Source: Nitrospirota bacterium (GTDB lineage Bacteria; Nitrospirota; Nitrospiria; 2-01-FULL-66-17). From it: a stretch of 64,000 nucleotides of DNA. The notes beneath the pieces were generated by a model, which was not told where the DNA came from, did no database searches, and was given only the letters and a program-made list of their open reading frames with translations. The position numbers and the translations under genes were made by a program. The DNA lies in contig JBMOMC010000007.1 in NCBI GenBank assembly GCA_049325335.1, forward strand, positions 259,034 to 323,033, read 5' to 3'. Positions within the stretch are counted from its first letter, which is position 1. Each line of letters starts with the position of its first letter. Below, piece by piece: positions 12,065 to 58,290 of the stretch.

Positions 12065-12544
12065 ATGACAAGCGGACGTTTACCGCGACTCTTGATACCC
12101 ACGGTATCGGCGATGGGGGAGGAACTCACCGCTCGCAAACGCCACGCCCGTCTCTTCGCCGGCTCGTTGCGCCAACTGTCCGGTCTCGCCCTTGGCGTCG
12201 GCCTCTTGGTGTTGGCGGGGTGCGGTAACGGAGCAGGATCAACCGACGCCCAGAGCCCGTCGGACCCCGTCAACCTCAGTACCGCGGTCTTAAATTGGGA
12301 TGCGCCTTCCACCAGCGAGGACGGGACGCCGATCGCGGATCTGGCCGGATACAGAGTTTACTACGGCACCACCGAACCGGTGACCAAATCGAACAGTGAC
12401 AGCGTTGATGTCGGCGACACCTTGGGCCACACCTTCGACAGCCTCCCCGCCGGCACGTACTACTTCGCGGTCGCCGCGTATGATCTGTACAACAACGAGA
12501 GCGAGTTATCGGGGTCCGTGACCAAGGTCATCTCGGAAGGTTAG
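12065..12544 (+). CDS. Lipoprotein with a single fibronectin type III-like domain
   Basis: Hydrophobic stretch plus lipobox LAGC, then AVLNWDAP...DLAGYRVYYG...GTYYFAVAAYD..NNES. GGAGGAGG RBS precedes GTG 12059/ATG 12065. Confidence 0.75.
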   Translation: MTSGRLPRLLIPTVSAMGEELTARKRHARLFAGSLRQLSGLALGVGLLVLAGCGNGAGSTDAQSPSDPVNLSTAVLNWDAPSTSEDGTPIADLAGYRVYYGTTEPVTKSNSDSVDVGDTLGHTFDSLPAGTYYFAVAAYDLYNNESELSGSVTKVISEG

Positions 12545-12583
12545 GCCATCACCATCACACGGGATATATTCGGGGTATCGGCT

Positions 12584-13993
12584 ATGCGGTTATCGCAATG
12601 GGGCGTGGGAATCGCGGGAGGAGTGCTCGCCGGTGTTCTGGGAGGCTGGGGGCTATCGTCCGACGCGTGGGGCGCGACGTACTACGTGGATCAGGCGCAC
12701 CCCAGCGCCAACGACAGCGGTCCCGGCACGAGTGAAACCGCACCCTGGTTGACGCTCCAGCGCGCGATGCAATCCGACATCGTGGCGGGAGACACGGTCT
12801 ACGTGAAGAATGGCACATATGACGCGGGAGCGGGTGAATTTAATCCGGCAAATTCCGGAACCCCAAGCGCGCCGATCGCCTTTCGCGCGTTCTCGGGACA
12901 CCGTCCCGTGGTCACGAAGCCCGGCGGAGATCCGGCAGGCGGAAACCGTATGGTGATCGGCGCGGACGGCCGAGGGAGTTATGTGATTTGGGATGGATTC
13001 ACCCTTGGTCCGTGGACCAACGTCTTGGTGATGAACGCCGATGGCGTCGTGTTGGAAAATTTGATCATCGACAAAGGCGCATCGGTACCGGCGAGCTGCG
13101 GACAAGGCAACTACAACGGCATTTTCGTCGAACTCGCTAACAACACCGTAATTCGCAACAACATCATTCGCAACATCAACTATACCGGCTGCAACTTGTG
13201 GAACGCGGGTGGGATCGTGTTGTACGAAGCGCACAACACGCGTATTTATAATAACGAAATCTATAACACCAACACGGGCATCAACGATAAAGAAAATGGC
13301 GTCTCCAACATCCACGAGTTCAACTACTTTCATGACATCGCCGGCCCCGGGGTGATGTTTCAGGGCTACGCCACGAGCCGGTGCGGGGCCTGCCCGGTTG
13401 AGAACATTGCGGTCCGCAACAATATCTTCGTCAACACCGATGTTGGAGTGTATCTGAATCTTTCGGACCCCTCGCGCGAGCGAAATATCGATGTCTACAA
13501 CAATGTCCTGTATAACGTCCGCAAGGGGTTCGGCATGATCACCGCCATTCCGGACATCGACGTTTACAACAACATTCTGATCACGCGAGCCGTTTCCGAC
13601 TCTGCTGAAATCGACCTCGATGCGATTCCCGCTGATTGGATGTCCAACTACAACAATTTCGAAGCGGCGTCAGGCGGAACGATCACCTTTAACACCCCGT
13701 CCGGCGCCGTCACGCTCACCCAGTGGCGGACCTCGCTGGGCGCTGACTTGAACTCAACCACGCTCGGTTCTCTATTTATCGGACCACTCACAGGGTCGAT
13801 CCGTCCCGAGGCGTTCCGGCTGAGCGGGATATCACCACTGATCAACCAGGGTCGCACCGGGGGAGTCTTGACCGGTACGCCGGTCAATATGGGAGCATTT
13901 CTCAGCAGCAATGATGTGGTCGGCTTGCGATCGGACTTGGGTCCGGTGGATTTCACTCCGCCTGCGCGGCCGACCGGCCTGAACGTTCGATAG
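12584..13993 (+). CDS. Secreted right-handed parallel beta-helix (pectin-lyase-fold) protein with C-terminal DxTPP..PTGL tail
   Basis: Signal peptide, ATYYVD...NDSGPGT..APWLT...GDTVYVKNGTY, many I.NN.I.N repeats; ends DFTPPARPTGLNVR. Confidence 0.8.
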   Translation: MRLSQWGVGIAGGVLAGVLGGWGLSSDAWGATYYVDQAHPSANDSGPGTSETAPWLTLQRAMQSDIVAGDTVYVKNGTYDAGAGEFNPANSGTPSAPIAFRAFSGHRPVVTKPGGDPAGGNRMVIGADGRGSYVIWDGFTLGPWTNVLVMNADGVVLENLIIDKGASVPASCGQGNYNGIFVELANNTVIRNNIIRNINYTGCNLWNAGGIVLYEAHNTRIYNNEIYNTNTGINDKENGVSNIHEFNYFHDIAGPGVMFQGYATSRCGACPVENIAVRNNIFVNTDVGVYLNLSDPSRERNIDVYNNVLYNVRKGFGMITAIPDIDVYNNILITRAVSDSAEIDLDAIPADWMSNYNNFEAASGGTITFNTPSGAVTLTQWRTSLGADLNSTTLGSLFIGPLTGSIRPEAFRLSGISPLINQGRTGGVLTGTPVNMGAFLSSNDVVGLRSDLGPVDFTPPARPTGLNVR

Positions 13994-14054
13994 GTCTGTC
14001 CGGCGCCTCCGCGCGCCGGACGAGCATTGGCATTCCGCGGATACTGGAGCCACC

Positions 14055-14894
14055 ATGAAGCCATTGCGCCCTGTAATCGTCGCGATCGTTCTCGGACTGG
14101 CGCTGTCCGGACTAAGCCGGACCGCTTCGGCCCAGATTCTGCTCCAAGAAGATTTTGAGGACAGTAATCTCTCCAGCCGCGGCTGGTACGACATGGCGCG
14201 ATGGGGCACGGAACAATTCATCTCGACTACCCAAGCCCGAAGCGGGAGTGCGTCCCTGGAAGTCCGCTACCAGAGCGGATCAACCGGCCCCTATATGCGT
14301 CATCAGTTTTCAGGTCAAAACCGCGTGTACACCCGGTACTACCGCAAGTGGGCGTCCAACTGGCGGTGGTCAACGGTGCCGGGACCGCACGATACATACC
14401 TGTTCGCCATGTACGGCCAACAATACTTCGCTCCGACCGAGACGTATCTGACCGTTTATACCGACGCCGTGTATCAGGGATTACCAAGTTGGCAACCGGG
14501 AACCATCGGGCTCCAAACAAAACGCTCGCTACAAGGCGAGTCGTATCGGACGTTGACGAGCTTGAGTCAGCCGCCCGCGCGATTCGTCCTTGATCAATGG
14601 TATTGCGTGGAGGTGATGGCCACCATGAACACCCCTGGAAGCAGCGACGGACGGCTTCAGTTATGGCTCGATGGGACACCGATCTTCGACGTGAGCGGCC
14701 GGCTACTTCGGGATGCCAACAATGCGGGGCTTCAGTTCGACCAGTTTATGTTCGGCCCGTACTTTCACGGTGGAACGTCGCAAGTCCAGTCAACCTGGAT
14801 TGATGCGCTGGTGATCGCTACCGAACGAGTGGGGTGTCTCGATGCCTCCGACACCACGCCTCCAAGTGCGCCGACCGGCCTCGTGGTTGAATAG
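14055..14894 (+). CDS. Secreted concanavalin/polysaccharide-lyase-like beta-sandwich protein with C-terminal tail
   Basis: Signal peptide, EDFED, WYCVEV...NTPG..DGRLQLWLDG, WIDALVIATERVGC; ends DTTPPSAPTGLVVE. Confidence 0.65.
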   Translation: MKPLRPVIVAIVLGLALSGLSRTASAQILLQEDFEDSNLSSRGWYDMARWGTEQFISTTQARSGSASLEVRYQSGSTGPYMRHQFSGQNRVYTRYYRKWASNWRWSTVPGPHDTYLFAMYGQQYFAPTETYLTVYTDAVYQGLPSWQPGTIGLQTKRSLQGESYRTLTSLSQPPARFVLDQWYCVEVMATMNTPGSSDGRLQLWLDGTPIFDVSGRLLRDANNAGLQFDQFMFGPYFHGGTSQVQSTWIDALVIATERVGCLDASDTTPPSAPTGLVVE

Positions 14895-14926
14895 CGATGT
14901 ATACCAGGCGTCGCGGGAGGAATCGA

Positions 14927-15973
14927 ATGCCCACGCGACTCGTTGTTTTCGTGGTAACCGTCGTCATGTTCAACGGTCAGTTCGCCTTCGCAGCGCACGA
15001 CTCAATCGCCCCATCAGCGCCACGGGGCGTCACGGGCCACGGTGTGAGCGCCACGTCGATAGAACTGACGTGGTGGCCTTCCCAGGACAATGCCGGCATC
15101 GACCACTACAACATCTATCGGTGCCAGGGATCGTCCTGCACCGGGACGCTCGTCGGCACCGCCGACACCAATTATTTTCTCGATACGGGTTTATCCGCCC
15201 AAACCCCGTACTCCTACACCGTCACGGCGGTTGATCCCGAAGGACGGGAGTCGGCTCGTTCACTCACGCTGGACGGCTACAGCCGGAGCATTCTGACACA
15301 CCCAACGGGCGGAACCGAAACGATCGAGATCACCAGCTCGCCGACTCAGGTAGCGCCTGGAGCGACGTTCAGCGTGAGCTGGCGACCGACGCTCAACTAT
15401 CAGCCGGGCTCATTCGGTCATCATGACGCCCATTTTAACGATTCGTTGGACACATGGGGGTGTAATCCGCCCAACTGCTGGTACGAGGTGGATATCACCA
15501 GTAATGGCGGAGTGTATTCCGTCACGTCCACCGCGCCAGCCGCCACCAAAGACATCTATTGGATCCCGGACCCGCACGCGGCCGGAGCCACATACAATAT
15601 CAACACCCACCAGCACTATCCGCTTGCGCGGATCGTCGTGACCAACGGCAACCCGCTAGCCATCACGACCACCACCTTGCCGAACGCCACGCTGAACACG
15701 CCCTATTCCCGAACCATCGTCCACAACGCCAGCAACGAGGCGGTCGGACCGTTCGCGTGCGGGGTCTCCGAGGGCAGACTGCCGAATAATGTGCTGCTCA
15801 ACAGCGCGACCTGCGTCCTATCGGGAACCCCCACCGAGTCCGGGAGCTTCATCTTCACCGCTCGCGTCAAAGCGACCAGTGAAAATTACGCCATGCGCCG
15901 GCTCGCGTTGACGGTCGGCACCTCATCCGACACGATCCCGCCCAGCCCCCCCACCGGCCTCACCGTCCGATAG
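14927..15973 (+). CDS. Secreted FN3 + putative Ig (He_PIG-like) domain protein with C-terminal tail
   Basis: Signal peptide, complete FN3 (APSAPRGV...IELTW...YSYTVTAVD..GRES), Ig-like repeat (LAITTTTLP...GRLP...LSGTPT); ends DTIPPSPPTGLTVR. Start at ATG 14927 with a GGAGG RBS. Confidence 0.75.
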   Translation: MPTRLVVFVVTVVMFNGQFAFAAHDSIAPSAPRGVTGHGVSATSIELTWWPSQDNAGIDHYNIYRCQGSSCTGTLVGTADTNYFLDTGLSAQTPYSYTVTAVDPEGRESARSLTLDGYSRSILTHPTGGTETIEITSSPTQVAPGATFSVSWRPTLNYQPGSFGHHDAHFNDSLDTWGCNPPNCWYEVDITSNGGVYSVTSTAPAATKDIYWIPDPHAAGATYNINTHQHYPLARIVVTNGNPLAITTTTLPNATLNTPYSRTIVHNASNEAVGPFACGVSEGRLPNNVLLNSATCVLSGTPTESGSFIFTARVKATSENYAMRRLALTVGTSSDTIPPSPPTGLTVR

Positions 15974-24252: not shown

Positions 24253-25347
24253 CTAGTACGATTGGCCCCGCAATAGGTCAAAAATCCACCGGGCTCGCTC
24301 CACCAGCCGTTCCTCGGCAAAACGAAAGCCCTGGTACCACACCGGCTTGAATACTAAATCGTAATAACCCGTCAAAAACACTCCCTCGGCCCGAAAACCG
24401 CTTTTAAACGTATAGATCGAGTAGGCCGGCGAGTCCGCTTGCGGAGGCCAGTCCGTCCCGGTTCCACCAAAATCAAACGTGGCAGCACCCTTGCGTTTGG
24501 CCCATCGCAGACCTTCCCACCAGAGCGCTTCATTCGGGTGCAGTGACCGTGCCGCGTGGATCAACCCGGTGTACAGCAGCCAAGCCCGATTCCCCACCGC
24601 AATGGTCAGAAACCCGGCAATGATTTCCCCGTCCTTCTCCGCCACCAGCAATGTCCCGTGTCCGGGTTTGATGACGTGCCGCCACAACAGTTCGTAGTAC
24701 GCGGGGCTGCGCACCACAAACCCCCAGCGGTCTCCGACCTCGGTCATGATGGTGCGGAACTTTTCCATTTCACGCTCGTCGCAGGCCTCCCGAATCACCA
24801 CGCCCCGTTTCGCCGCGCCGCGGATGTGCCGCTGATGGGTATCGCGCATCCGCTTGATCAGATCGGTTTCTGACGGACGAAGATCCATCCAACTCACGAT
24901 TCGAGGATCATTCAGCGACGACCACTTCTTATCCGCGAGATGGCGAAATCCCGCCTGATGCAACCGTGCGCGCGCGTCCGCGTCGTCGTCAACGAGATCG
25001 GGATCCACACGAAGGAACACGGATCGATACCGTCCGGCAACATCTCGCACGCCGTCGAGGAGACAGTTCAACGCCTCGGCATCCTTGAGGTCTACGACCG
25101 GCCCCCTGGGACTGCACAAGAAGGTCAATGATGTCTTGGGAATCTTGCGCACTAAGAGCGATGCGGCACCGCACAGTTGGCCGTTCCGCTCCACTCCCAG
25201 TCTGACTGTGTGCGTGCCTTCATAGGCCACCACCTCGCCCCACTCGTAAAGCTGTTTAAAATGCGGGTGCGGTGAGCCCGCCACCCACGCATTGAAGCGA
25301 TCGCGGTCCCCCTCGCCTAACTCGATCAGTTCCACGGGTGCGCTCAT
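24253..25347 (-). CDS. FemABX-family (GNAT-fold) aminoacyl/peptidyl transferase
   Basis: HFKQLYEWG, PRGPV, FLRVDP, R.IR.A.KRGV, PNEALWW, FDFGG and FKSGF. Start at 25347 or 25371. Confidence 0.8.
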   Translation of the reverse strand: MSAPVELIELGEGDRDRFNAWVAGSPHPHFKQLYEWGEVVAYEGTHTVRLGVERNGQLCGAASLLVRKIPKTSLTFLCSPRGPVVDLKDAEALNCLLDGVRDVAGRYRSVFLRVDPDLVDDDADARARLHQAGFRHLADKKWSSLNDPRIVSWMDLRPSETDLIKRMRDTHQRHIRGAAKRGVVIREACDEREMEKFRTIMTEVGDRWGFVVRSPAYYELLWRHVIKPGHGTLLVAEKDGEIIAGFLTIAVGNRAWLLYTGLIHAARSLHPNEALWWEGLRWAKRKGAATFDFGGTGTDWPPQADSPAYSIYTFKSGFRAEGVFLTGYYDLVFKPVWYQGFRFAEERLVERARWIFDLLRGQSY

Positions 25348-25372
25348 ATGACCCTTTGGGCGGTTCCCCACA

Positions 25373-25633
25373 TCACCGGCGAGACCCGAACGCCACCACC
25401 AGCAACACGCCCACCACGCCCACTATCAGGGCGATCACGGCCAACATGCCGGCCCCGCCGACCGACCCGCTGAGTTGATCAAAAAAGGAACTCGTAGCGG
25501 CGGCCGCCGGAGCGGCAGCCTTTCGCGGAGCCTCACTATGGTCGTGGCCCTCGTGGGCCCACAGCAACGCCGTCTGGAGGAACCACCCCATCGACCACAG
25601 TCCAACCAATAACCGCTTGCGCTGGTTCTTCAT
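25373..25633 (-). CDS. Small exported membrane-anchored protein with N-terminal HEGHDH motif
   Basis: AGAGGA RBS, signal peptide ending LWA, mature N-terminus HEGHDH, Ala-rich linker, SGSVGGAG, TM helix and terminal RR. Confidence 0.65.
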   Translation of the reverse strand: MKNQRKRLLVGLWSMGWFLQTALLWAHEGHDHSEAPRKAAAPAAAATSSFFDQLSGSVGGAGMLAVIALIVGVVGVLLVVAFGSRR

Positions 25634-25703
25634 TTTTTTCCTCTGTGTGCAGGCCCGTGGGGCGATCACCACGCCACGGACAGACATACAGTTATGCGAA
25701 ACA

Positions 25704-26378
25704 CTACAACGATAGGCGGGGGCGAATCTGGACTCCCAACACCCTCACGTTGAAGAAGGTGCTCACTCGGCGAAATCCCACTCGCATCAGCGCCATTTCC
25801 AGTCCGAGCCGAAACGCCGCGCCGTGATCCACGACGTGTCCATACACGCGCTGATATCCGCGCCGCGCCAGTTCCTGCGCCATCACGGCATTCGTGGTGC
25901 CGTACAACCCGTGGCCCCGGAACGCCTCGAAGGTGTACGCATGTTTGAGTTCGGCTTCCTGGGGCGCGAGGCGGACGAAACGATTCGGGATCGAATGATC
26001 GTAGATCCAGGCGATGTGCGCGGGCTGCCCCTCCCACCACGCCACGAACGGCTCGGCGCCGTCGATCTGATCGCGATAGAATTCGCTCCGAGTGCCTTCC
26101 GGCGTCTGGCGAAACCGCGCCAAATCGCTCGGCGTCGCCCGTCTGATTTCGGCTCGCGGATCGGGCGGCGGCGCGGTGTAGCCGGCCCGCAAGTCAATGG
26201 CCAACAATGACACGCGTTGGCGACAGAAGAGGAACGGACCAAGCGCCTCGCGAAAACCTTGTAGGCCGCCATCCTGCAACAGCCTCCGCGCCGATCGCAT
26301 CATTCGACCGAACACACCCGGCCGAGCCGGCCGGGATTCGGCGATGGGATGCGCCTCCAGCAAACGATCGCGGCTCAT
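25704..26378 (-). CDS. GNAT-family N-acyltransferase
   Basis: YTFEAFRGHGLY acyl-CoA-binding motif A and C-terminal RVGF; ATAG-type overlap with the dehydrogenase stop. Confidence 0.7.
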   Translation of the reverse strand: MSRDRLLEAHPIAESRPARPGVFGRMMRSARRLLQDGGLQGFREALGPFLFCRQRVSLLAIDLRAGYTAPPPDPRAEIRRATPSDLARFRQTPEGTRSEFYRDQIDGAEPFVAWWEGQPAHIAWIYDHSIPNRFVRLAPQEAELKHAYTFEAFRGHGLYGTTNAVMAQELARRGYQRVYGHVVDHGAAFRLGLEMALMRVGFRRVSTFFNVRVLGVQIRPRLSL

Positions 26379-27520
26379 AGGCCCAGTCGACTCGCGATAA
26401 GGTTGCGCTGAATATCCGAGGTGCCGGAATAGATACGACTCCCGATCGCGTCCCGCACCTCCCGCTCCAGTTCGGATTCGACCTTGTACCCAGAACCGCC
26501 GTGGATCTGCAGCGCATCCAGGCTGGACTGCACGTAGCCTTCGCTGACGACCAGCTTGGTGATCGCAGACTCCAGCAACGCCGACTTACCCTCCCGCTTC
26601 AACCAGCCCACGTGATAGAGCAACAACCGCGAGGTTTCCAAGCGGACTTTCATCTCGGCGATCCGATGGGAGACGGCCTGAAACGAGCCAATGGCCCGGC
26701 CGAACTGTTGTCGTCGTTTCGCATAGTCAATACAGCGGTCGAGTTGGCGCGCCATTCCGCCCACCGCGCTCGCCATGATGAGACTCCGTTCCCAATCCAT
26801 CGAGGAGTTAAAAATCGTGGTCCCGGCGCCGGGTTGTCCCAACATATTCTCTGCCGGAATGTCGCAATCGACCAACTCCAGTTCCGACGCCAGACCGGTT
26901 CGCAGCCCCATCTTGTTCAGCGTCTTGCCCACCCGCAGGCCCGGAGCGGAGCGATCGATCAGAAACGCGGAGATGCCTGCAAAACGTTTGCGCGGATCCG
27001 TGGAGGCAAATACCACGAACACGTCCGCCACCGGACCATTGCAGACGAACACCTTTCTCCCATTAAGCCGGAACCGGTCGCCCACACGCTCGGCCGTTGA
27101 CGTGAGGCTGAAGGCGTCCGATCCCGATTCGGCCTCGGTGATGGCATGTCCGGCGATCAGGGACCCGTCGCTCAGTCCCGGCAAATACCGTCGTTTCTGG
27201 GGCTCCGTGCCGAACTTGAGGATGGCCACTACGCACGAGCAAATTTGCGCGCTGATGGAAAAGAGCAGTCCGTTGTCGCGGCATCCGTACCCGAGGGCTT
27301 CCATGGCCAACACCAATCGGAGCGCGTCCGCGCCTTGTCCGCCGTATTCCTTGGGAATCAACAGACCCTGAATCCCGAATCGGGCGCACTTGTTCCACGC
27401 CTCGCGGGAGAAGAGGCCCTCCGCATCCCGCTGAATCAGGTTTTCCCCCAACTCCCGTTGCGCAAACGCGACGACCGCGTCCCGATACCGTTGTTCCTCT
27501 TCCGTCCAACCGAATTCCAT
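26375..27520 (-). CDS. Acyl-CoA dehydrogenase-family L-prolyl-PCP dehydrogenase (PltE/RedW/AnaB-like)
   Basis: EYGGQG, LGYGCRDNGLLFS, HAITEAESGSD, QFGRAIGSFQAV and IYSGTSDIQRN; adjacent to a carrier protein and an A domain. Confidence 0.85.
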   Translation of the reverse strand: MEFGWTEEEQRYRDAVVAFAQRELGENLIQRDAEGLFSREAWNKCARFGIQGLLIPKEYGGQGADALRLVLAMEALGYGCRDNGLLFSISAQICSCVVAILKFGTEPQKRRYLPGLSDGSLIAGHAITEAESGSDAFSLTSTAERVGDRFRLNGRKVFVCNGPVADVFVVFASTDPRKRFAGISAFLIDRSAPGLRVGKTLNKMGLRTGLASELELVDCDIPAENMLGQPGAGTTIFNSSMDWERSLIMASAVGGMARQLDRCIDYAKRRQQFGRAIGSFQAVSHRIAEMKVRLETSRLLLYHVGWLKREGKSALLESAITKLVVSEGYVQSSLDALQIHGGSGYKVESELEREVRDAIGSRIYSGTSDIQRNLIASRLGL

Positions 27521-27527
27521 TCCGCCG

Positions 27528-27776
27528 TTATCTCCCGCTCCGCGCGTTCACCAACGCAACGATCGAGCTGATGGTTTCAAAATGATCCGGGACTACCTCT
27601 TCATCCGGCAACACGATCCGAAATTCTTGCTCCAAGAACGCCAGGAGTTTGACCAACCCCAATGAGTCGAGAATGCCTCGTTCCAGCAACGAGTCGTGAT
27701 CACCGACCGCGCCTTGACTCTTCTCGTGCATCAATTCCTTGACGATGAACTCCCGGACTCGTTCCGTCACGCCCAT
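27528..27776 (-). CDS. Stand-alone acyl/peptidyl carrier protein
   Basis: 82 aa, acidic, GILDSL phosphopantetheine-attachment Ser; AAGGAG RBS before ATG 27776. Confidence 0.9.
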   Translation of the reverse strand: MGVTERVREFIVKELMHEKSQGAVGDHDSLLERGILDSLGLVKLLAFLEQEFRIVLPDEEVVPDHFETISSIVALVNARSGR

Positions 27777-27813
27777 TCCATTCTCCTTTACCATCCGGCC
27801 TCCGCCTTGACCT

Positions 27814-29499
27814 TCAACCGACGCCGCCATGTTGCCGCGGCGTGTCGGCCAACGCTTTGCGGTCCACCTTTCCGGTGGAGGTTCTCGGCAGCTCGGCATG
27901 TATCTCCACGGTCTCCGGCACCATGTACGACGGGAGTCGGTCCGCGCAGATTTTCTTCACGTCGGCCTCGGTCAGTGATCCGGAAGAATCCACCACCACG
28001 CAGGCCTTGATGCGATTGCCGAACTCCTCATCCGGCACCGCCACCGCCGCCGCTTCTTTGATATGCGGACTGGCGTACAGAGCGGTTTCAATTTCCCCCA
28101 GCTCGATCCGATACCCGCGGCTCTTGATCATATGGTCTCGGCGGCCGACCAAGAGGTAGTTGCCGTCCGCATCCAATGTGACGATGTCGCCGGTGCGGTA
28201 GAGTCGTTCGGGAAAATTCGACTGCAAGGGATTGCCCACCACGACTTTGTCGGTCTTGGCAGGATCGCCCCAGTATCCCTTCATCACCAAAGGCCCACGG
28301 ACATAGAGTTCCCCTTCTTCACCCGCCTGAATCAGCCGCCCCCCTTCCGAGAGCGCGAACACCTCCGTGTTGGCGCACGCCTTGCCAATCGGGATCGGCT
28401 GCACGCGATCCGTATCCAGCGTCGGCACGCGGTAATACGTGCAGACATTAGTTTCCGTGGGGCCGTAAAGGTTATAGAACTCCGTATGCGGAATCGCGGC
28501 CATGAGCGATCGCAAATACTTGACGGGAAACACCTCGCCGGCAAACAAGACGGTGCGGAGCCGTTCAAACGAGAAGCGACCGAGTTGGCCGCGCTGCAAC
28601 AAGAGAATGAGCGCGGACGGCACCGAGTACCAAATCGTGATCGCCTGCCGCTGAATAAACTCCGCCAACCGAATCGGAAAGGTCGAGAGCCCCTCCGGGA
28701 CCAGCACCACGGCACCGCCGGTCTTGATGGCGCAGAAGATATCCAAAATCGAGAGATCAAAATGCAGGGGTGCGTGGTTGGACAACCGATCTTCGGCGGT
28801 GACTGCAAACGTGGAGACCGCCCATTGGATAAAGACCATCGCGTGGCGATGGCTCAACATGACACCTTTGGGTTCGCCCGTGGACCCGGAGGTATACAGG
28901 ATGTACGCAAGATCGTCTTCCACCCCCTGGGCGGACTCCCGGCTCGCCGGCTCCGGCGGTCCACCCTCCTCACCGGCTTGCGGCCAGGCCGCGACACGCA
29001 CGCCGGACCACGACCGCTCCATCCTCGCGGTATCCCCGTCACCGACCACGATTGATTCGGGGTATCCCTCATGTTCAGCGGCCGCCGCCAAGGCGTTTAG
29101 CTTGAGGCGAGCACTGATCAGGACGCGCATGCGGCAGTTCTTGATGATATACGCAATGCGCCGCGGGGGACTGTTGGGGTCGAGCGGGACATACACGCCA
29201 CCCGCGTCGAGGATGCCGAGGAGACTGATCACGGACTCGATGGACTTCGGCAGATAGATCCCGACCCGGTCTCCCCGACGGACACCGAGGTGGCGCAACC
29301 GTCCGGCCAGTCGGCAGACGGCTTCGGCCAGCTCTGCGTAGCTCAGGGTTCGATCGTTCAACACCACCGCCGGCCGATCAGGGAACCGAGCCGCACTCTG
29401 CTCAAGCAGATGGGACAGCAGATACGCCTCGGACGGCGCCGCGGTCCCCGCGACCCGCGCCACCTCGAGCCGATCCTGGTGCCGTTGGCTCATGGTCAT
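27814..29499 (-). CDS. Stand-alone amino-acid adenylation enzyme, predicted L-proline-activating (PltF/RedM/CloN4-like)
   Basis: YTSGSTGEPKG, HFDLS, NLYGPTE, YRTGD, GYRIELGEIE and PRTSTGK. Pocket residues read by hand as DLLYLALVCK. Start at 29499 overlaps the upstream stop. Confidence 0.85.
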   Translation of the reverse strand: MTMSQRHQDRLEVARVAGTAAPSEAYLLSHLLEQSAARFPDRPAVVLNDRTLSYAELAEAVCRLAGRLRHLGVRRGDRVGIYLPKSIESVISLLGILDAGGVYVPLDPNSPPRRIAYIIKNCRMRVLISARLKLNALAAAAEHEGYPESIVVGDGDTARMERSWSGVRVAAWPQAGEEGGPPEPASRESAQGVEDDLAYILYTSGSTGEPKGVMLSHRHAMVFIQWAVSTFAVTAEDRLSNHAPLHFDLSILDIFCAIKTGGAVVLVPEGLSTFPIRLAEFIQRQAITIWYSVPSALILLLQRGQLGRFSFERLRTVLFAGEVFPVKYLRSLMAAIPHTEFYNLYGPTETNVCTYYRVPTLDTDRVQPIPIGKACANTEVFALSEGGRLIQAGEEGELYVRGPLVMKGYWGDPAKTDKVVVGNPLQSNFPERLYRTGDIVTLDADGNYLLVGRRDHMIKSRGYRIELGEIETALYASPHIKEAAAVAVPDEEFGNRIKACVVVDSSGSLTEADVKKICADRLPSYMVPETVEIHAELPRTSTGKVDRKALADTPRQHGGVG

Positions 29500-30584
29500 G
29501 ACGCGAGTCCTTGCGCCATGGTCGCGGCTAGATCCGCCGCCTTGCGCTGCTGAAGGTCCCGAAAATACCCCGCGCGTTTCGCAATACGTTGCTGGAAGGC
29601 GTCGATGTTCGCGGCAAGTTCGTCCAGCAAATCCACCGCGGCGTCGAGCGAGAGGCGGTCCGTGCGAATACTGAACCGTTCCAATTCCATGGACATCATG
29701 AAATCCAAACACTTCGGTTGATACTCCAACATGACCGACGGGGTGTTCGCGCACAACGCCAATACCACCGAGTGCAGTTTCTCCCCCACAAAGACATCGC
29801 ACGTTCGCAGACACTGCATCGTTGCTTCCACCGAGTGATAGTCGCGAAACACCGACACCGCACCGGGGTCATTGATCCGCTTGACCGCTTCCTGGATATA
29901 GGGCAGATCGGCGTCCCACATCGGCACAAACACGGCCCGATACCCCAGGCCGATCATCGTGGTCACCAGTTGTACCACAAACTCCAGAATGCGTTCTTCA
30001 TCGCCCCACACGTTTCCGTACGCAGTCCCAATGTTAACCCCGAGGAGCTGTGTTCCGCGTTTCGGAGCGATCGTGACGTCCGCGAACGTCAGGGCCGTAT
30101 CACCGACGATCTCCGCGCTTGGGTACCCGGCCTGCGCGAGCAGGTGCTGGGACAACGGGCCCCGAACCCCGACGAATCGACACCGTTCCAGACACTCGAT
30201 CCATTCATGCAGGCCATCCGGCTCGCCGCGTTTCTGCATCCCAAACACCGGGTCAGCCACGCCGGTCCCCAGTGCAAACGATGGTTGGTAGCGGCTCTGA
30301 GCCGCTCGGAGCGCGTCCAGAATAGCGCGTTTATTGATGAGGGTTCCGCCACCCAGGATCGTGGCCACGAAGACTTTCCGTCTCATGATCTGCTCCAGCC
30401 ACACAGTTTTGGCCGAATATTTAAAGGGCAAGAGCCGGTGGCGTGGGAACAACCGTTGAAAGGCCAGGTACAACGCCTCATCTCCGAGGTTGCCGTGCCC
30501 GACCCATCCTAAGTAACCGATCTTGGGCGCTGAGGGAAGGACATACTGCCAATTCCCGCTCAGGATGGACAGCGTCATCCTCAT
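29496..30584 (-). CDS. Polysaccharide pyruvyl transferase family protein
   Basis: GHGNLGDEA, LGGGTL, VGVRGPLS, GDTAL, KLHS and YQPK. Confidence 0.8.
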   Translation of the reverse strand: MRMTLSILSGNWQYVLPSAPKIGYLGWVGHGNLGDEALYLAFQRLFPRHRLLPFKYSAKTVWLEQIMRRKVFVATILGGGTLINKRAILDALRAAQSRYQPSFALGTGVADPVFGMQKRGEPDGLHEWIECLERCRFVGVRGPLSQHLLAQAGYPSAEIVGDTALTFADVTIAPKRGTQLLGVNIGTAYGNVWGDEERILEFVVQLVTTMIGLGYRAVFVPMWDADLPYIQEAVKRINDPGAVSVFRDYHSVEATMQCLRTCDVFVGEKLHSVVLALCANTPSVMLEYQPKCLDFMMSMELERFSIRTDRLSLDAAVDLLDELAANIDAFQQRIAKRAGYFRDLQQRKAADLAATMAQGLAS

Positions 30585-32119
30585 CCGCCGAGTTCCACCG
30601 GTGCGTCAACCGGCCGTCCCTCGCGACGCCCGGAGTCATCGGTCCCTGGTGACGCGGTGACTCCTCGCATCGCCGCCAGCAGATTCCCGGGTGTGATCAT
30701 CGCGCGCTCCTCCGCGGTGAGAAACCACCGATGCACCACGACCAAGAAACACGCCATGAGGCCGGTATTCACGACCAGTGATCCGACGAGAGAGGGCATC
30801 GCCACCAAACGGCTCAGGACGTAGATCCCCACCCCCGTCGCCAGCAGCCCGGACTGTTTCGCCCATCCGTACTCGATCGGATAGAGCGTTTGCGAATACC
30901 GGTAGACCAACAGAAACCGCAAGGCCCACGCGCTCATCGTGGCCAGGCCAGCCCCATAGGCCCCATACCGGGGCACGAGGATCAGGAGTAAAGCCATCGC
31001 CGCTCCGGCTGAAATCAAGGCGGAGGTGGCCATGTATCGGCTTCGGTCCTTGAGAAAGAGCCCGATATTACAAAACGCCGCCCAAATCTGAAGGATGTAG
31101 ATCACGAGAATCAGCGGAACGATGTTCGCAGCCCCGCGATACGAGGGGGCGGACATGACCCCCAGAAAATCCCTCACGAACAAGCAGATGACAAGCGACA
31201 GGGCCACGATAACGATATTGCAGTAAAAAAATACCTGCTGAAAGATCGCCCGGCCGTCGTCGCGCTTCGCGATCTCAAACCGCCGCGACTCCCAGATCAA
31301 ATTGAAGGGCATGAACGCCACGGTCGACAAGATGAACCCGAATTTGTAGGCCAAGGCGTACAGTCCGACCGTCTCCAGATCGCTAAAAATATTGAGTACG
31401 TATCGGTCGGCGGACGTCATCAGGAATCCACCCAGCGAAACAAAGATAAATGGATAGCCGAAACGGAGCATGCTCCGACATTTCTCCGGGGAAAATCGCC
31501 ATCCAATCCGACGAACCGTGTAGTAGAGGACGTAGCACCCGACGCCCGCCTCGGCGACCAGAGCGCTGTAGAGCGCGCCGCGCACGTCCCAATCCAGGAA
31601 TACGATGAAATACACGTTCAGCGCGACCTGGACCGCCAGTTTACATAAGTTGACCCCCACAAATCGCAGGGAGTCCTGCACGGCTCGGATATACATTAGG
31701 GGAATTACCGCCATGCCTGACTGGAAAAAATAGACCGCAAACAAGACCCGGAAATAGCCGGCGTAGTCCGACCGGGCGAACACGAGCTGGGCGAGCCGGG
31801 GAGACAGCCAGATTCCCACCAAGGCGGTCACCGCGGCGATGCCCACCATCATGACAATGACGGTGCTGATCACCTCCTGTTTCTCGCGGGGGTCGTCGTA
31901 TTGTGAATAGAATTTAAAGACCGTCGAGACGAGGCCCACCGCCGCGATCATCGCGATGATTTCGATCGTGGTCCCCAGCAGTTCCAGCACGCCATATTCG
32001 TGCGGATCCAGATACCGGGTGTATACCGGCAACATGATGAATCCAGTGGCCTTACTGGCCACAATACCGACCCCGTAGATCACCGTATGTTTGCCCAACA
32101 TTCTGATTTCGGTAGCCAT
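30581..32119 (-). CDS. wzx: Wzx-type oligosaccharide flippase
   Basis: Multi-TM protein with LPVYTRYLDPHEYG, DRYVL...VGLYALA and LVPRYGAYGA. Confidence 0.85.
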   Translation of the reverse strand: MATEIRMLGKHTVIYGVGIVASKATGFIMLPVYTRYLDPHEYGVLELLGTTIEIIAMIAAVGLVSTVFKFYSQYDDPREKQEVISTVIVMMVGIAAVTALVGIWLSPRLAQLVFARSDYAGYFRVLFAVYFFQSGMAVIPLMYIRAVQDSLRFVGVNLCKLAVQVALNVYFIVFLDWDVRGALYSALVAEAGVGCYVLYYTVRRIGWRFSPEKCRSMLRFGYPFIFVSLGGFLMTSADRYVLNIFSDLETVGLYALAYKFGFILSTVAFMPFNLIWESRRFEIAKRDDGRAIFQQVFFYCNIVIVALSLVICLFVRDFLGVMSAPSYRGAANIVPLILVIYILQIWAAFCNIGLFLKDRSRYMATSALISAGAAMALLLILVPRYGAYGAGLATMSAWALRFLLVYRYSQTLYPIEYGWAKQSGLLATGVGIYVLSRLVAMPSLVGSLVVNTGLMACFLVVVHRWFLTAEERAMITPGNLLAAMRGVTASPGTDDSGRREGRPVDAPVELGG

Positions 32120-32136
32120 TTACACCCGTTTCCGGA

Positions 32137-34146
32137 TCACGTTTTCGCCAAACTCAGGCCGCCACGCGGTCGAAAGAAAAACTCCACCACGAGATCTCCC
32201 TCAGGAAGCTCATCGAGTTCCATCATCCGATCGCGTTCGGTCAGCATGGTCGCCTGTCCATTCACCCGCGCGGACCACCAGGGGTGGTAGCTGATCTTCA
32301 GGCGAAGCCGATTGCGCGGGACGTTGTTGTGGATCTCGAACACCAAGCGCTCATTGTCAAACGAGACAAGCTTGGCCGGGACCCTTGTTCCCTGCTCAAG
32401 TGCCAGCCATTGAAGATCAGCATCATTGACCTGGAGGACCGAGAACAACCGACGCCGACTCTCATAGACCCGCGTGAACTGTCCCCCGTTGAGTAGCTTC
32501 TGGGTAATCATCGGGTGCCAGACCACGAGATACGAGCAATTGAGCCCTTTCATCAGCTCGTCGACCTGATCGATCGAGCCGAACGGATTGTCGTTCGGAA
32601 ACACCGCGGGTTGGCGGAAGGAAAACTGGGTCTTTAATCGCTGGGTGACGATCGACCCGACTCCGGTCATCTGAGTGGACAACGCGGCCACATTCGCGTA
32701 TCCCCCGTCCAAGAACCCGATGCCCTCGAGCTCCTCATACATCACCCGACTGTTGGACGCCGCAACGTGTTCTTTGACAAAGGCCCACACCCCGGCCATT
32801 TCCTCGTAGATGACCGATTCATCGCTTGTTTTCAGCGCCACGTAGTTCGTGTACGTGGCGTACCGCACGCCGTGTAAGACCGCGAGCACCACCACCGCGA
32901 CCGCGGCATACCGCGCCGACCCGAATCGGCGCAGAATTCCCTGAAGACCGTAGGCTGCCGCCACGATCAGGGCCGCGTTGACGTACAGGACAAACCGGTC
33001 CTGGCGAAAGGCCGCGATCACGCTGTCCCCCCCGCCCACGAAATGCCACGGGCCGATCACGAACAGCACAAAAACCGCCAGAATCCAGGCCGTGTACCGG
33101 AGAAAGACCCCGCGTTCCGCGTCGCGTTCGCCGCGGTCACGCGCAATACCGACCAGCCCCCCTACGGCCAACAGCACCAGCAGACCTTCGGCAAGGTGTT
33201 CGGCCGCGAGCTGGGCGGCCAGCCGCACACCGTCGGAAACCTGGCCGGAACGGACCGCAGGCAATACGTCCTCGACAATCTGCTCGAAGCCGCCGGGGAA
33301 CATGAACCAGGCGGGAAGACGAACCACGAGACCGAGCAAGCCGCCGCTGGAGGCTGGATTCGGGCTCCCCCATCCCGTCTGGCCGACCACTACCGCGGCA
33401 ATCCACCACCCGATCGCGACGCCGGACACCAAAAACGCGCCCACGCCCACGACCAGCGCCCGCCCGGTGATCCCGCGTTTGCGAGTGTAGAAGACAACGG
33501 TTACTGGAATCACGATCGCCAGCAGCGGCCACGTCAGCGCATCGGTCAAGGCCGTGATCACCGTCAACGCGCCAAGGGTCGCCGCCTGGAGAAGCGTCAG
33601 GCTCCTGGTCAACCAACGATCGCAATAATGGACCAGCAGGAGCAATGGGCCGAGCGCGAGGTAGTGAATCCACATCCCTTGCAACGGCTGGAGAAGCTGA
33701 TAGGTCAACGCAAGATACAACCCCACCGCGCCGCAAGCCGCGAGGCGGTCCACGCGCTCGGACAACGTCACCCAGAGCGCGATGGCAGGAAACACAAACG
33801 AGAAAAAGACCATCAGCTTGTACAAGACGGCCAGCGAAATACTCGTCGCCTGGTTCAGGGCCACCAAGACCAGCACACTTAGCGGCGCGGGGACCAACGG
33901 AGAGAAGGCGGGAAAACCGCCGAAATCGCTCTCAAACCATCCGACCGCACCGCCCGCTGCATGCAATCGCTCCGCTACCTGGGAAACCAGGGCGAAGTAA
34001 AACGGATGATCCCCGGTAATCAACAAACCGGGACCGAACATCGGGTGCAAATACACACCCCCGACGCCCAGGATCGCGGCAACCGCGACGAGGTTCCAGC
34101 GCCTCATCCCCACGCGACACGGCATCCCGGTTTCAAACCGACCCAT
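32137..34146 (-). CDS. Polytopic membrane protein, PTPS-related/YfhO-like (GT-C-type glycosyltransferase candidate)
   Basis: GDH after TM1, W....FGGFP.F loop, about 12 TM helices and a soluble C-terminus with SYHPWWSARVNG. Confidence 0.55.
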   Translation of the reverse strand: MGRFETGMPCRVGMRRWNLVAVAAILGVGGVYLHPMFGPGLLITGDHPFYFALVSQVAERLHAAGGAVGWFESDFGGFPAFSPLVPAPLSVLVLVALNQATSISLAVLYKLMVFFSFVFPAIALWVTLSERVDRLAACGAVGLYLALTYQLLQPLQGMWIHYLALGPLLLLVHYCDRWLTRSLTLLQAATLGALTVITALTDALTWPLLAIVIPVTVVFYTRKRGITGRALVVGVGAFLVSGVAIGWWIAAVVVGQTGWGSPNPASSGGLLGLVVRLPAWFMFPGGFEQIVEDVLPAVRSGQVSDGVRLAAQLAAEHLAEGLLVLLAVGGLVGIARDRGERDAERGVFLRYTAWILAVFVLFVIGPWHFVGGGDSVIAAFRQDRFVLYVNAALIVAAAYGLQGILRRFGSARYAAVAVVVLAVLHGVRYATYTNYVALKTSDESVIYEEMAGVWAFVKEHVAASNSRVMYEELEGIGFLDGGYANVAALSTQMTGVGSIVTQRLKTQFSFRQPAVFPNDNPFGSIDQVDELMKGLNCSYLVVWHPMITQKLLNGGQFTRVYESRRRLFSVLQVNDADLQWLALEQGTRVPAKLVSFDNERLVFEIHNNVPRNRLRLKISYHPWWSARVNGQATMLTERDRMMELDELPEGDLVVEFFFRPRGGLSLAKT

Positions 34147-34149
34147 CCG

Positions 34150-36045
34150 TCACCCACGCTCAACGTAGCGGTGGTGCCACATCGAAAACATCAGGAGCAA
34201 CCACAGTCTGTTCTCGTGGTTGTGACGGCACGAGAGATGTTCCGACACCAGGGTGGCGACATACCGCTGGTTGAACAGGCCCAGCCGCTTCACCCGGGTC
34301 TCCGAAAGCCACTCCATCAGCGCCGGACGCAGCGCGCCGCGCAGCCACGCGGCCAGCGGCACGGAGAACCCCCGCTTCTTGCGGGATAAAATCGCGGCGG
34401 GCAGGATCGGGGCGAACGCTTGTTTGAGCAAGTACTTCTTGGTCAACCCGCGCATCTTCAGGTGCGACGGGATCGTCGCCGAAAATTCCAGGAGGCGATG
34501 ATCGATGAACGGGGCTCTGACCTCCAGCGAATGGGCCATACTGAGCCGGTCCGAGAGCACCAACAGATCGTCCGGGAGATACACCGCCAGATCGCAGAAC
34601 ATCATTTGGGTCAACGGATCACACGATCGGGTTCGTGAAAATGCCTGCGCGAACGCGGTCTCGGACGCGCGCGAGCTCGCTCCGTTCCGCGCGTCGCGAT
34701 TGAACAGACTCCGCATCTCGTCCGCGCGATACACCGCGGCGTAATTGTGATACCGCTCCTGAATCGTCCCCTCGGCTCCGGCCACGAACCGCTTCGCGCG
34801 ATCGATGATGGGCCATCCGCGTTTGGAATCGGGAAGGTGTTCGACCAGCGGACGAATGATCCGCTCGCGAAGCACGCGCGGCAGCGCGTGGTACCGCTCG
34901 GCCAACAACACGCCCACGTAACGCTCGTACCCGGCCCCCACCTCGTCCCCTCCCACCCCGGAGAGCGCCACCGTCACGTGTTCGCGCGCGAGTTTCGACA
35001 CCACGTAGTTGGGAATCACCGAAGAGTCGCCGAACGGCTCGTCGAACGACCGAACGATCGCGGACAACAGATCCTCGTTGGGGGGACCGAGAAGCACCTC
35101 GTGATGGTCCGTGCCGAACCGATCCGCGACCAACCGCGCGTACGGTCGCTCATCGTAAAACGCGCCCTCCTCGCCGTAGCCGATGGTAAAGGTCTTGACC
35201 GGGTGCGGGGTGAGCGCGGCCATCTCCGCGACAATCGCGCTCGAATCAATGCCCCCGCTCAAAAACGCGCCGACCGGCACGTCGCTGACCAATCGCAGGC
35301 GCACGGCCTCTCGAAACTGGACGCGGAACTCCTCGATGATGTCCTGCTCGGTCCGATCCTCGCGGGGCTGCGGGGACAGATCCCAATAACGGCGGCACGA
35401 CCACTTGCCTTGCTCCGCGACCAACATCTCGCCGGGCAACACCCGGCGGATCCCCCGGAAAATCGTGCGGTCGCCCGCGATATAGCCGTACTGAAAAAAG
35501 TCATCAACCGCGTCCCAGTCGAGCGCGCGGTCCTGCGCGGGATCCTGCAACAAACACTTGATCTCGGAGCCGAACCGCAACGTGCGCGGCCCGACCGCAT
35601 AGTAGAGCTGTTTGACCCCGACGCGGTCGCGCAGCAACACCAGTCGCTTGCGTTTGACGTCCCAGATCGCGACGCCGAACATGCCGCGCAAGTGCTGCAC
35701 GCACTCCAGCCCGTATTCCTCATACAGGTGTACGATCGACTCGGTATCGGTCTGCGTGGCGTAACGATGCCCTCGTTGTTCCATCAACGCGCGCAGCTCG
35801 CGATAGTTGTAGATCTCGCCGTTAAACACGGTCCAGACCGTCCCGTCCTCGTTCCGAATGGGTTGGCGCCCGGTCGCAAGGTCGATCACTTTGAGGCGCC
35901 GAATGCCGAGACCGATCTCCCCTTCAAGATAAAACCCTTCCTCATCGGGCCCACGGTGCCGGATCACGTCGGTCATAGACTGGAGCGCGCCGCGATCGCC
36001 CAATGGTTCGCCGCGCAGATCCAAGATGCCGGAAATCCCGCACAC
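34150..36045 (-). CDS. asnB: Asparagine synthase (glutamine-hydrolysing) family amidotransferase
   Basis: N-terminal MCGI, HRGPD, FNGEIYN, LSGGIDSS, SGVGGDE and E.RAPF. In EPS loci these usually amidate the polymer. Confidence 0.93.
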   Translation of the reverse strand: MCGISGILDLRGEPLGDRGALQSMTDVIRHRGPDEEGFYLEGEIGLGIRRLKVIDLATGRQPIRNEDGTVWTVFNGEIYNYRELRALMEQRGHRYATQTDTESIVHLYEEYGLECVQHLRGMFGVAIWDVKRKRLVLLRDRVGVKQLYYAVGPRTLRFGSEIKCLLQDPAQDRALDWDAVDDFFQYGYIAGDRTIFRGIRRVLPGEMLVAEQGKWSCRRYWDLSPQPREDRTEQDIIEEFRVQFREAVRLRLVSDVPVGAFLSGGIDSSAIVAEMAALTPHPVKTFTIGYGEEGAFYDERPYARLVADRFGTDHHEVLLGPPNEDLLSAIVRSFDEPFGDSSVIPNYVVSKLAREHVTVALSGVGGDEVGAGYERYVGVLLAERYHALPRVLRERIIRPLVEHLPDSKRGWPIIDRAKRFVAGAEGTIQERYHNYAAVYRADEMRSLFNRDARNGASSRASETAFAQAFSRTRSCDPLTQMMFCDLAVYLPDDLLVLSDRLSMAHSLEVRAPFIDHRLLEFSATIPSHLKMRGLTKKYLLKQAFAPILPAAILSRKKRGFSVPLAAWLRGALRPALMEWLSETRVKRLGLFNQRYVATLVSEHLSCRHNHENRLWLLLMFSMWHHRYVERG

Positions 36046-36055
36046 GATTCGTTCC

Positions 36056-37282
36056 CTACAACGCCGCGCTCGCGGACCACGCGCGATGCGATCCGCGCGC
36101 CACCGAGCCGGCGGTCTGGAGCAGCCGGGAGGCCTCCAGATTCCAATTGTAGGTGTTGCGCACCGCCTGACGGCCGTTCTCCCCGAGCCGTCGGCGAAGC
36201 GCCGGGTCCCGCAACGCCGTCAACGCGTCGAGAAACTCGGCCTCGTTGCGATACACGAACCCGCACTGCGCGTCGGCGATGACCCGGGCGATGGGCCCGA
36301 GATCCGTGGCGATGACGGGTTTGCCCAGGAGCATGTACTCGAACAATTTATTGGGAATGGTGGCGGTCGTGTGGGGCGTGATGAGATGCGGAATGATCCC
36401 GACATCGCATTGGCCCGCCCGGCGCTGCGCCTCGGCATACTCCTGCCGACCGGTGAGCACCACCCGTTCATTGAGCCCCAGGGCGTTGATCCGTTGTCTG
36501 AGACCGTCCTCCCCCTTACCGCCCCCGACAATGACGAACTGAAACAACGGGATCGCTCGCGTCACCGCTGGAATCATGTCCAACACGCGTTCCAGCCCGC
36601 GCATCGGTTCCACCCCGCCGACATAACCGAGCGATAACGACGCGATGGCCGCGGGCCGTGGATCACTCGGCGACGGAGAGACGGCCTCATCCAGGTACGG
36701 CACGTTGCTGATCGTCGAGAGTTTCGCGGCCGGGACCCCCTTGGCGAGCAGGTATTGCCTCGCCTCCTCAACCACCACGACCGTGTGATCGGCCAATCGG
36801 GTCGCGGCGAATTCCACCATCGTGGCCAACCCGACGTTCCGGACCAGCAGATTGTGCCAACGAAACGGCTCGAACCGCCACATGTCGCGCAACATCGCCG
36901 GGTAGGGCTCGGCCATGTCATAGATCACCGGCACCCCCGCGACGCGACCCACCCCAATCGCGGTCAGGGCCAACGGGAGATCCCGAACGACGATGAGGTC
37001 GATGTGATGCTCCCTGACCACGCCGTTGATGCGCCGTATCCACCACGGGCTGAAAAACGCGGGGAAGTTGAGCGCGTCGTTCACACGCGGGCGAGCGTGA
37101 GCGGCCACCCGGTGAATGAACACGCCGTCTCGCGTTTCCTCGCGGGGAGGCGTCTCGGGACCCGGGTGAAGCAAGCGACAAACCAGGTGCACCTCGTGGC
37201 CGTGTTCGACAAACGTCCGACTGAACTTCCACACCCGGACGTCCCACGGATACGCCCCGTCGTAGATCAGACAGACCTTCAT
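36056..37282 (-). CDS. Glycosyltransferase family 4
   Basis: True start MKVCLIYDG at 37282 (ATGA overlap with wecB); PNKLFEYM..GKPVI. Confidence 0.85.
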   Translation of the reverse strand: MKVCLIYDGAYPWDVRVWKFSRTFVEHGHEVHLVCRLLHPGPETPPREETRDGVFIHRVAAHARPRVNDALNFPAFFSPWWIRRINGVVREHHIDLIVVRDLPLALTAIGVGRVAGVPVIYDMAEPYPAMLRDMWRFEPFRWHNLLVRNVGLATMVEFAATRLADHTVVVVEEARQYLLAKGVPAAKLSTISNVPYLDEAVSPSPSDPRPAAIASLSLGYVGGVEPMRGLERVLDMIPAVTRAIPLFQFVIVGGGKGEDGLRQRINALGLNERVVLTGRQEYAEAQRRAGQCDVGIIPHLITPHTTATIPNKLFEYMLLGKPVIATDLGPIARVIADAQCGFVYRNEAEFLDALTALRDPALRRRLGENGRQAVRNTYNWNLEASRLLQTAGSVARGSHRAWSASAAL

Positions 37283-39587: not shown

Positions 39588-39590
39588 GGA

Positions 39591-42978: not shown

Positions 42979-42979
42979 A

Positions 42980-44029: not shown

Positions 44030-44030
44030 G

Positions 44031-48815: not shown

Positions 48816-48862
48816 GTACTCGGGCGCGAGAGCGGGCTAGGGGCTGGCGGACGGCCGCATGA

Positions 48863-49903: not shown

Positions 49904-49922
49904 CGTCTTCTCCCCGTATCCC

Positions 49923-51038: not shown

Positions 51039-51066
51039 CCGCAGCACCCCGTCGCACAACGGGACC

Positions 51067-52653: not shown

Positions 52654-52701
52654 AATCCCCCCGCAGTGTCGGCGATCAGGGTCTCCACGCGAGACACCGC
52701 G

Positions 52702-55007: not shown

Positions 55008-55028
55008 AGGCGTGCTCGACGGGCTCCG

Positions 55029-57424: not shown

Positions 57425-57495
57425 GATCTCTTACCAGCCTCCGTTCCGGCTCGCCGCGGCGGAGGCGCTGCATCTCCTCCGTCGGGCCGCCCCGG

Positions 57496-58089: not shown

Positions 58090-58290
58090 CTCGCCTCTGG
58101 ACGCCCCGCACGCCCACGTGGTCGCCGCGACGACGGCCAACGGACGGGCAAGAACGCCACCTCAATGTTTAGGGTATGACCCGAAACGCGGTGTGCTTAT
58201 TCTCTGTCCGGTGACCGTTTGGTCGGGGATAGGCCGACGGATGGCAGCTAATACGCCATCGGTGGAGTACCGTCCCCAGGAATGGTGCGA

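Follow-up and report, generated by a model that had tools for sequence, protein, structure and literature searches.

Gene organization of the locus

In the 64,000-nt stretch of Nitrospirota bacterium contig JBMOMC010000007.1 that was analysed here (assembly GCA_049325335.1, positions 259,034 to 323,033; referred to below as the window), four co-directional open reading frames (ORFs) are found on the plus strand within positions 12065-15973, with intergenic gaps of 39, 61 and 2-32 nt. The first ORF (12065..12544, whose true start is possibly downstream of 12065) encodes a lipoprotein composed of a signal peptide, an LAGC lipobox, a flexible linker and a fibronectin type III (FN3) domain predicted to lack strand A; we call it the socket. 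The remaining ORFs encode putative exported proteins, named cargo 1 (12584..13993, 469 aa), cargo 2 (14055..14894, 279 aa) and cargo 3 (14927..15973, 348 aa, with an alternative start at 14897), each of which ends in a 14-residue tail. A promoter and terminator scan gave no promoter and two minus-strand terminators, counts at or below shuffle levels. An assembly or frameshift artefact was ruled out, as the socket gene, which precedes the tail genes here, follows them at other loci, and the tails recur across genomes.

Cargo 1 is a right-handed β-helix protein with an N-terminal hydrophobic segment and a PF13229 match of 33 bits, above the cut-off. Cargo 2 matches PF21294 and PF14099 above cut-off, and its model (predicted local distance difference test, pLDDT, 91) shows a jelly-roll resembling polysaccharide lyases, with the alginate lyase Aly36B (6kcv; E 2e-11, 17% identity) as the best Foldseek match. 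The modelled fold is consistent with a PL14/PL36-like lyase, and the X122, Cip1 and calreticulin folds, which are non-catalytic or uncharacterised, likewise match it. Cargo 3 contains a complete FN3 domain (PF00041, residues 30-110, starting at 14999), a middle domain without family assignment, and a He_PIG immunoglobulin (Ig) domain (PF05345, residues 245-330). The initial annotation of this DNA had described the three proteins as interchangeable carbohydrate-active cargo. The label of carbohydrate activity finds fold-level support for two of them and does not extend to cargo 3, where only FN3 and Ig-like domains were recognized, while interchangeability agrees with the exchange seen in same-genus genomes (see below). 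From fold and neighbourhood only, the probable roles of the cargoes are those of adhesins and of proteins that belong to the envelope or act on exopolysaccharide.

The cargo tails correspond to FN3 strand A

Translation agreed exactly with the initial annotation and gave DFTPPARPTGLNVR for tail 1 (13949-13993), DTTPPSAPTGLVVE for tail 2 (14850-14894) and DTIPPSPPTGLTVR for tail 3 (15929-15973), each of 14 aa followed directly by a stop codon. The initial annotation had stated that these ends lack a transmembrane helix, and the Kyte-Doolittle analysis agreed: no ORF has a C-terminal hydrophobic segment, the best 19-residue means being 0.12-0.88. The last 35 residues of the three cargoes match no Pfam or NCBIfam model. 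We then used a tail profile trained only on 30 tails from other organisms' proteins, all homologues of cargo 2, on which the three tails scored 21, 30.5 and 31.5 bits, respectively (range 21-32 bits). Among 11,784 stop-to-stop ORFs of at least 120 aa in the genome, exactly these three reached 15 bits; four reached 8 bits, and the fourth was a 13-bit match unlike the motif. Between the tails, agreement extends to 20-24 of the 30 first plus second codon positions but to only 6-8 of the 15 third positions. Since the third positions have diverged and the first and second are conserved, the tails are kept as protein, and a recent DNA repeat was ruled out as their origin.

The same profile matched 56 sites in a tandem FN3 protein of this genome, a 9,014-residue ORF with about 60 complete repeats (C7:191516-218560, minus strand), and 55 of these sites lie exactly 14 residues before the strand-B Trp. 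The strand A of the complete FN3 domain in cargo 3 scored 11.8 bits. Together with the alignment of a socket-plus-tail protein to Dscam described below, these results uphold the proposal that the tail is FN3 strand A, as judged from sequence and models.

The giant array raises the alternative that the tail binds complete FN3 or Ig repeats of such surface proteins by strand addition or swapping, and not the lipoprotein. In simulations of human FN3 pulled at its RGD loop, strand A is reported to be the first to detach (PMC2585069), which speaks for this alternative. We consider this alternative highly improbable, as the gene linkage is with strand-less domains, and an intramolecular strand A would be expected to outcompete a free one.

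The lipoprotein domain lacks strand A

A homologue search with the lipoprotein collected 68 proteins including the query, and these are mostly lipoproteins with a variable low-complexity linker before strand B. The lipobox Cys (codon 12221-12223) is nearly invariant among 59 aligned sequences, and W26, Y44 and Y81, corresponding to the strand-B Trp and the Tyr residues of strands C and F, are conserved. Upstream of strand B, the best tail-profile score in the lipoprotein was 2.3 bits, and only 1 of 67 homologues carries a strand-A-like stretch (8 bits) ahead of the Trp. In many relatives the domain begins 4-6 residues past the predicted signal-peptide cleavage site, which leaves no room for strand A. 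The AlphaFold2 model, built from 59 sequences, shows six strands from residues 20-25 to 100-104, whereas residues 1-19 form no strand and are unstructured (pLDDT about 50). In the gene, strands B-G assigned from the model and the structural alignment span 12278..12541.

The modelled domain has the FN3 fold, with six strands in place of the usual seven. All top Foldseek matches are FN3 domains, and the Pfam fn3 match, which is below cut-off, covers profile positions 11-69 of 84. Structural alignments to solved FN3 domains start at model residue 16-19 in most rows; that to 4yfe_B, for example (Z 9.4, root-mean-square deviation 2.1, 80 aligned), starts from residue 18, and that to the consensus domain 3teu (3teu_A) begins at its residue 14. 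A PDB sequence search returned no solved bacterial relative but mostly animal or designed FN3 domains and one chitinase FN3. The claim that this domain lacks strand A is therefore sustained in the model, and a seven-stranded lipoprotein, which would have spoken against it, was not seen. As had been noted, the PxxP-to-Trp spacing of the lipoprotein is 9, and that of the complete FN3 domain in cargo 3 is 16. The lipoprotein PxxP (PSDP) itself does not hold as a conserved landmark, and it was ruled out as a vestigial strand A, since it lies in the variable linker in which so few homologues reach 8 bits.

A second strand-less FN3 domain in the same genome (C43:83157-85493) forms the N-terminal tip of a repeat stalk protein whose end consists of a GGCG (Cys) motif, a membrane helix and basic residues. 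The 12 kb stretch examined around it contained no tail gene.

Proteins that carry both socket and tail

Six proteins from other loci (L199, L203, L253, L263, L296 and L310) combine a strand-less FN3 domain with a tail. Four of them (L199, L203, L253 and L263) are small and consist only of a signal peptide, strands B-G and the tail, and larger ones occur in genomes G004 and G058. In the four small proteins, 26 residues lie between strand G and the end of the tail core, a spacing that equals the mode of the tandem array (38 of 45). In addition, L199 gives a gap-free alignment across the junction of two FN3 domains in the solved structure of Dscam (7y8s), and its tail falls on strand A of the next domain. 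The tail of such a protein would thus point away from its own domain, and it could only complete another molecule.

These proteins suggest another arrangement, in which the module builds filaments like a minimal pilus, with the lipoprotein as base, socket-plus-tail proteins as shaft and tail-only proteins as tips. Other bacteria do have socket-plus-tail proteins, and phages commonly encode look-alikes; the nearest Atlas clusters of L199 are phage proteins. For the present locus we regard a filament as distinctly unlikely, as neither this genome nor the three same-genus loci encode a socket-plus-tail subunit: the two clear sockets here are tail-less, and the three tails are on proteins without a strand-less FN3.

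On the viral contigs L143, L144, L148 and L155, we observed phage proteins in which a strand-less FN3 is followed by a strand-A-like motif and, after it, a short Trp/Ile-rich C-terminal extension.

Position of the tail and exchange with other anchors

We scanned the best 150 of 1,974 cargo 2 homologues for the tail motif. Among 53 matches, 38 lay within 11 residues of the C-terminus, 15 were internal, and none was found 12-100 residues from the end; training the profile on 30 of these tails affects the scores but not the empty class. Because the intermediate class is empty, the tails do not look like random truncations, and simple truncation of full FN3 domains, named in the initial annotation as an outcome that would overturn its proposal, was not observed. 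Packing of the tail on its own domain was likewise not seen in the cargo 2 monomer model, the one cargo model available, where the tail has no secondary structure (pLDDT 63). Since homologues end without the tail and the tail is unstructured in the model, the cargo 2 domain can do without it. The window contains a local example of the domain without a tail, a second lyase-like exported protein (18029-18982, minus strand; weak PF14099) that shares the Gly-Cys of cargo 2 and stops a short distance beyond it.

It is conceivable that the tails have no function and are what gene fission or domain loss has left of FN3 stalks, and that the six-stranded FN3 is a stable stand-alone variant. In favour of this, bacterial FN3 repeats in this genome begin most often with DTTPPxxPxGLxV, and most sockets have no nearby tail. 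We nevertheless judge decay to be very unlikely, given the lack of intermediate truncations among the 53 matches, the protein-level conservation despite diverged third codon positions, and the recurrence of tails on as many as five unrelated genes in a row (four or five at loci L207, L211, L170, L190 and L226).

Homologues of cargo 2 that do not carry the tail showed other ends. In 20 such proteins, hand-picked by eye, a type IX secretion system (T9SS) sorting domain was found at the end of seven and MYXO-CTERM at the end of one, above cut-off; in the eight that were scanned for further anchors, a dockerin was found in two above cut-off and PEP-CTERM in one below cut-off. Some homologues end in no anchor at all. 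At the sequence level, the tail alternates with known anchors on one cargo family.

As the tail occupies the slot of the T9SS and MYXO-CTERM signals, it might be a sorting or secretion signal for another machine, such as a type II secretion system, an outer-membrane protein or the exosortase W locus, in which case the strand-less FN3 would be an independent, co-regulated envelope protein. Many tail loci have no nearby socket, and an exosortase W gene lies 35 kb from the module, both of which fit such a signal. We find it rather unlikely all the same: the tail is specifically the strand that its neighbour lacks, it has no membrane helix, which sortase-type signals need, and the small socket-plus-tail proteins in tandem-array register would be left unexplained.

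Linkage of tails and sockets across genomes

In all three same-genus genomes examined (3/3), the lipoprotein is kept and is followed by one or two different tail-bearing proteins. By this gene content, the cargo is interchangeable behind the same lipoprotein. A strict tail pattern matched more than 131 metagenome stretches, and on viral contigs only two loci. The tail-first set comprised 71 loci with fetched flanks, with seven duplicates dropped and 51 short loci left out; in the 62 readable loci (60 metagenome and two viral, many on short contigs), a strand-less FN3 was found in 13, and in 5 of the 15 loci of at least 8 kb.

In a survey of the phylum, 195 of 301 genomes match the socket profile, these matches not being each confirmed as strand-A-less. 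For tails, 150 of 159 pattern matches were listed and screened by eye, and 40 stretches from 35 genomes were followed up, with a pattern that misses variant tails. A verified tail gene was present in 21 stretches from 19 of the 35 genomes, and all 19 were socket-positive (19/19, against the background of 195/301). The tail candidates in eight socket-negative genomes were not credible gene ends, with best scores of 8-10 bits and short ORFs. A strand-less FN3 lies in 9 of the 21 tail loci, within a stretch of up to 19 kb; for comparison, the present 3.25-Mb genome contains two clear socket genes.

The converse relation is much weaker. A separate tail gene (at least 10 bits) was found in only 7 of 79 socket-picked genome loci and in none of 40 socket-picked viral loci. 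Many sockets, in Gammaproteobacteria, sit on long stalks without an adjacent tail gene, and among five lone-socket gammaproteobacterial genomes, verified tail genes, located with a loose pattern and then verified, were present in two, far from the sockets, and in none of the other three. In 41 relatives the loose DNA pattern was no commoner than its reversed control, and it was not used for counts. The co-occurrence that the initial annotation proposed to test is thus usual from tail to socket and weak from socket to tail: within a genome, sequence matches indicate that tails usually accompany sockets, and that sockets are commoner. Sockets may also work alone.

A proposed donor-strand tether

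We suggest, with a probability of about 0.65, that the tail and the lipoprotein form a non-covalent donor-strand tether for exported cargo, the two together making up a single split FN3 domain. All four proteins would be exported via their signal peptides, and the lipidated Cys of the conserved lipobox would hold the lipoprotein in the membrane, where it presents strands B-G with, according to the model, an open strand-A groove. The free C-terminal tail of a cargo would then insert as strand A, complete the fold and fasten the cargo non-covalently, so that protease, chaperone and sortase would be unneeded, and one socket type could hold any of the three cargoes. Where they occur, socket-plus-tail proteins could serve as extenders that chain head to tail, as their spacing suggests.

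To examine this arrangement, one complex prediction of the lipoprotein FN3 with the tail was run without alignments. It scored 0.55 compared with 0.02 for the best of three controls, with 91% or more of the contacts shared between runs and a partner pLDDT of at least 57, but the result is rated as weak support and no interface was returned. In the benchmark, 51 of 78 solved complexes reached the score mark, as did 2 of 108 mismatched pairs, and passes at 0.60 or under comprised 5 of the 78 solved complexes and all 4 mismatches that passed.

Several other observations weigh against the tether. The complex score may reflect intact FN3 domains that the prediction model has memorised, and the six-stranded domain models confidently alone (pLDDT 77-90), so that it may not need a partner. 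No socket was seen in 49 of the 62 tail-first loci, many contigs being short. Most tail genomes belong to one family, in which 53 of 60 genomes match the socket profile; since the tail genomes cluster there, the co-occurrence is confounded by kinship. Moreover, in a family with 54 of 54 socket matches, the strict pattern led to no verified tail. The scarcity of tail genes beside sockets described above points in the same direction.

Comparison with known systems

The FimA and Mfa1 (type V) pili of Bacteroidia resemble the proposed tether in that a C-terminal donor strand occupies a groove of a β-sandwich partner and a lipoprotein stands at the base; their pilins, as far as the accessible part of PMC13655056 describes them, have two-domain transthyretin-like folds and a lipoprotein start, and assemble by protease cleavage and strand exchange. 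Here, in contrast, the acceptor is a single FN3 domain whose groove is apparently open from the start in the model, the anchor is the acceptor, and the donors are unrelated cargoes that are not lipoproteins, no lipobox having been seen in the tail proteins. The locus thus has neither the transthyretin-like two-domain fold nor the lipoprotein-exported donor subunits of that system. In chaperone-usher pili and the Pam pili of the candidate phyla radiation, an incomplete Ig-like fold is likewise completed by a strand of another chain; the parts of PMC13278184 and PMC13655056 available to us describe chaperones in both and an N-terminal donor strand in chaperone-usher pili. In our module the donor is C-terminal, the missing strand is FN3 strand A, and the four genes match no chaperone or usher family.

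In the cohesin-dockerin tethering of cellulosomes, interchangeable enzymes attach non-covalently to a membrane-anchored scaffold through a small terminal tag; this tag, the dockerin, is a folded domain that binds calcium, and its partner is a complete cohesin. The present locus shares the small terminal tag, the interchangeable cargo and the anchored partner, and the cargo 2 family carries dockerins elsewhere, whereas the tag here is one 14-residue strand. PEP-CTERM, MYXO-CTERM and the T9SS C-terminal domain use the same terminal slot on the same cargo family, and an XrtA/PEP-CTERM-type cluster lies near the module; unlike them, the tail has no membrane helix, basic tail, or NCBIfam or Pfam match. 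The tail proteins accordingly lack the hydrophobic segment of exosortase or myxosortase targets, and neither the window proteins nor the tails match TIGR04183, the T9SS C-terminal domain of about 75 residues. Tandem FN3 arrays (PF00041; Dscam 7y8s, titin) have the same fold and the same G-to-A junction spacing, but here the chain breaks after strand A, so that strand A is encoded by a different gene from strands B-G.

We found no description of the tail tag in a full-text literature search, which does not reach most subscription papers and supplements. Anastellin is an artificial FN3 fragment and no natural split domain, according to the accessible part of PMC8471655, and the part of a mycobacteriophage paper (PMC12646305) that was available makes no mention of fibronectin, FN3 or strand. 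We regard the split FN3 system as real and as undescribed in the sources searched; the proposed tether would work like known donor-strand complementation. The tail would then be a new C-terminal anchoring signal without membrane helix or sortase, joining a short bacterial list. This would explain the tail on many hypothetical exported proteins (more than 131 strict-pattern matches), and it would account for a common family of strand-less FN3 proteins whose present annotation is no more than 'fibronectin type III domain'. A natural pair of a 14-mer peptide and a 90-residue domain could also serve as a protein-coupling tool. A broader idea, to which we would give somewhat less than even odds, is a widespread enzyme-free anchoring and assembly code in bacteria and phages, with 14-residue C-terminal strand-A tags on many unrelated exported proteins, membrane-anchored sockets, and socket-plus-tail extenders that would polymerise into FN3-like filaments with exchangeable heads.

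Neighbouring genes

Outside the module, genes for exopolysaccharide production form an XrtA/PEP-CTERM-associated type of cluster that includes exosortase W and occupies 24253..58161 on the minus strand, with NF038142, TIGR03019, TIGR03006 and TIGR03013 above cut-off. This cluster, together with the PrsK/PrsT-like genes that neighbour sockets in two relatives, suggests a role of the tether in the matrix or envelope. The exosortase W gene (NF038142) is at 51067-52701 on the minus strand, and nothing was found on XrtW in the literature search. Within the same cluster, the stretch 26375-29868 (minus strand) encodes an acyl-CoA dehydrogenase resembling, below cut-off, the prolyl-carrier-protein dehydrogenases PigA/RedW, which adjoins an adenylation-domain protein.

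Directly behind the module, in visibly AT-richer DNA, lies a Stf0-type sulfotransferase gene (16050-16964, minus strand), followed by a cytochrome gene with two c7-type triheme domains (TIGR04257; 17160-17936, minus strand) between exported-protein genes. The 1,722-aa exported protein encoded at 18984-24152 (minus strand) has no Pfam or NCBIfam match and contains an internal duplication about 2,166 nt apart, in which opposite-strand ORFs give identical translations.

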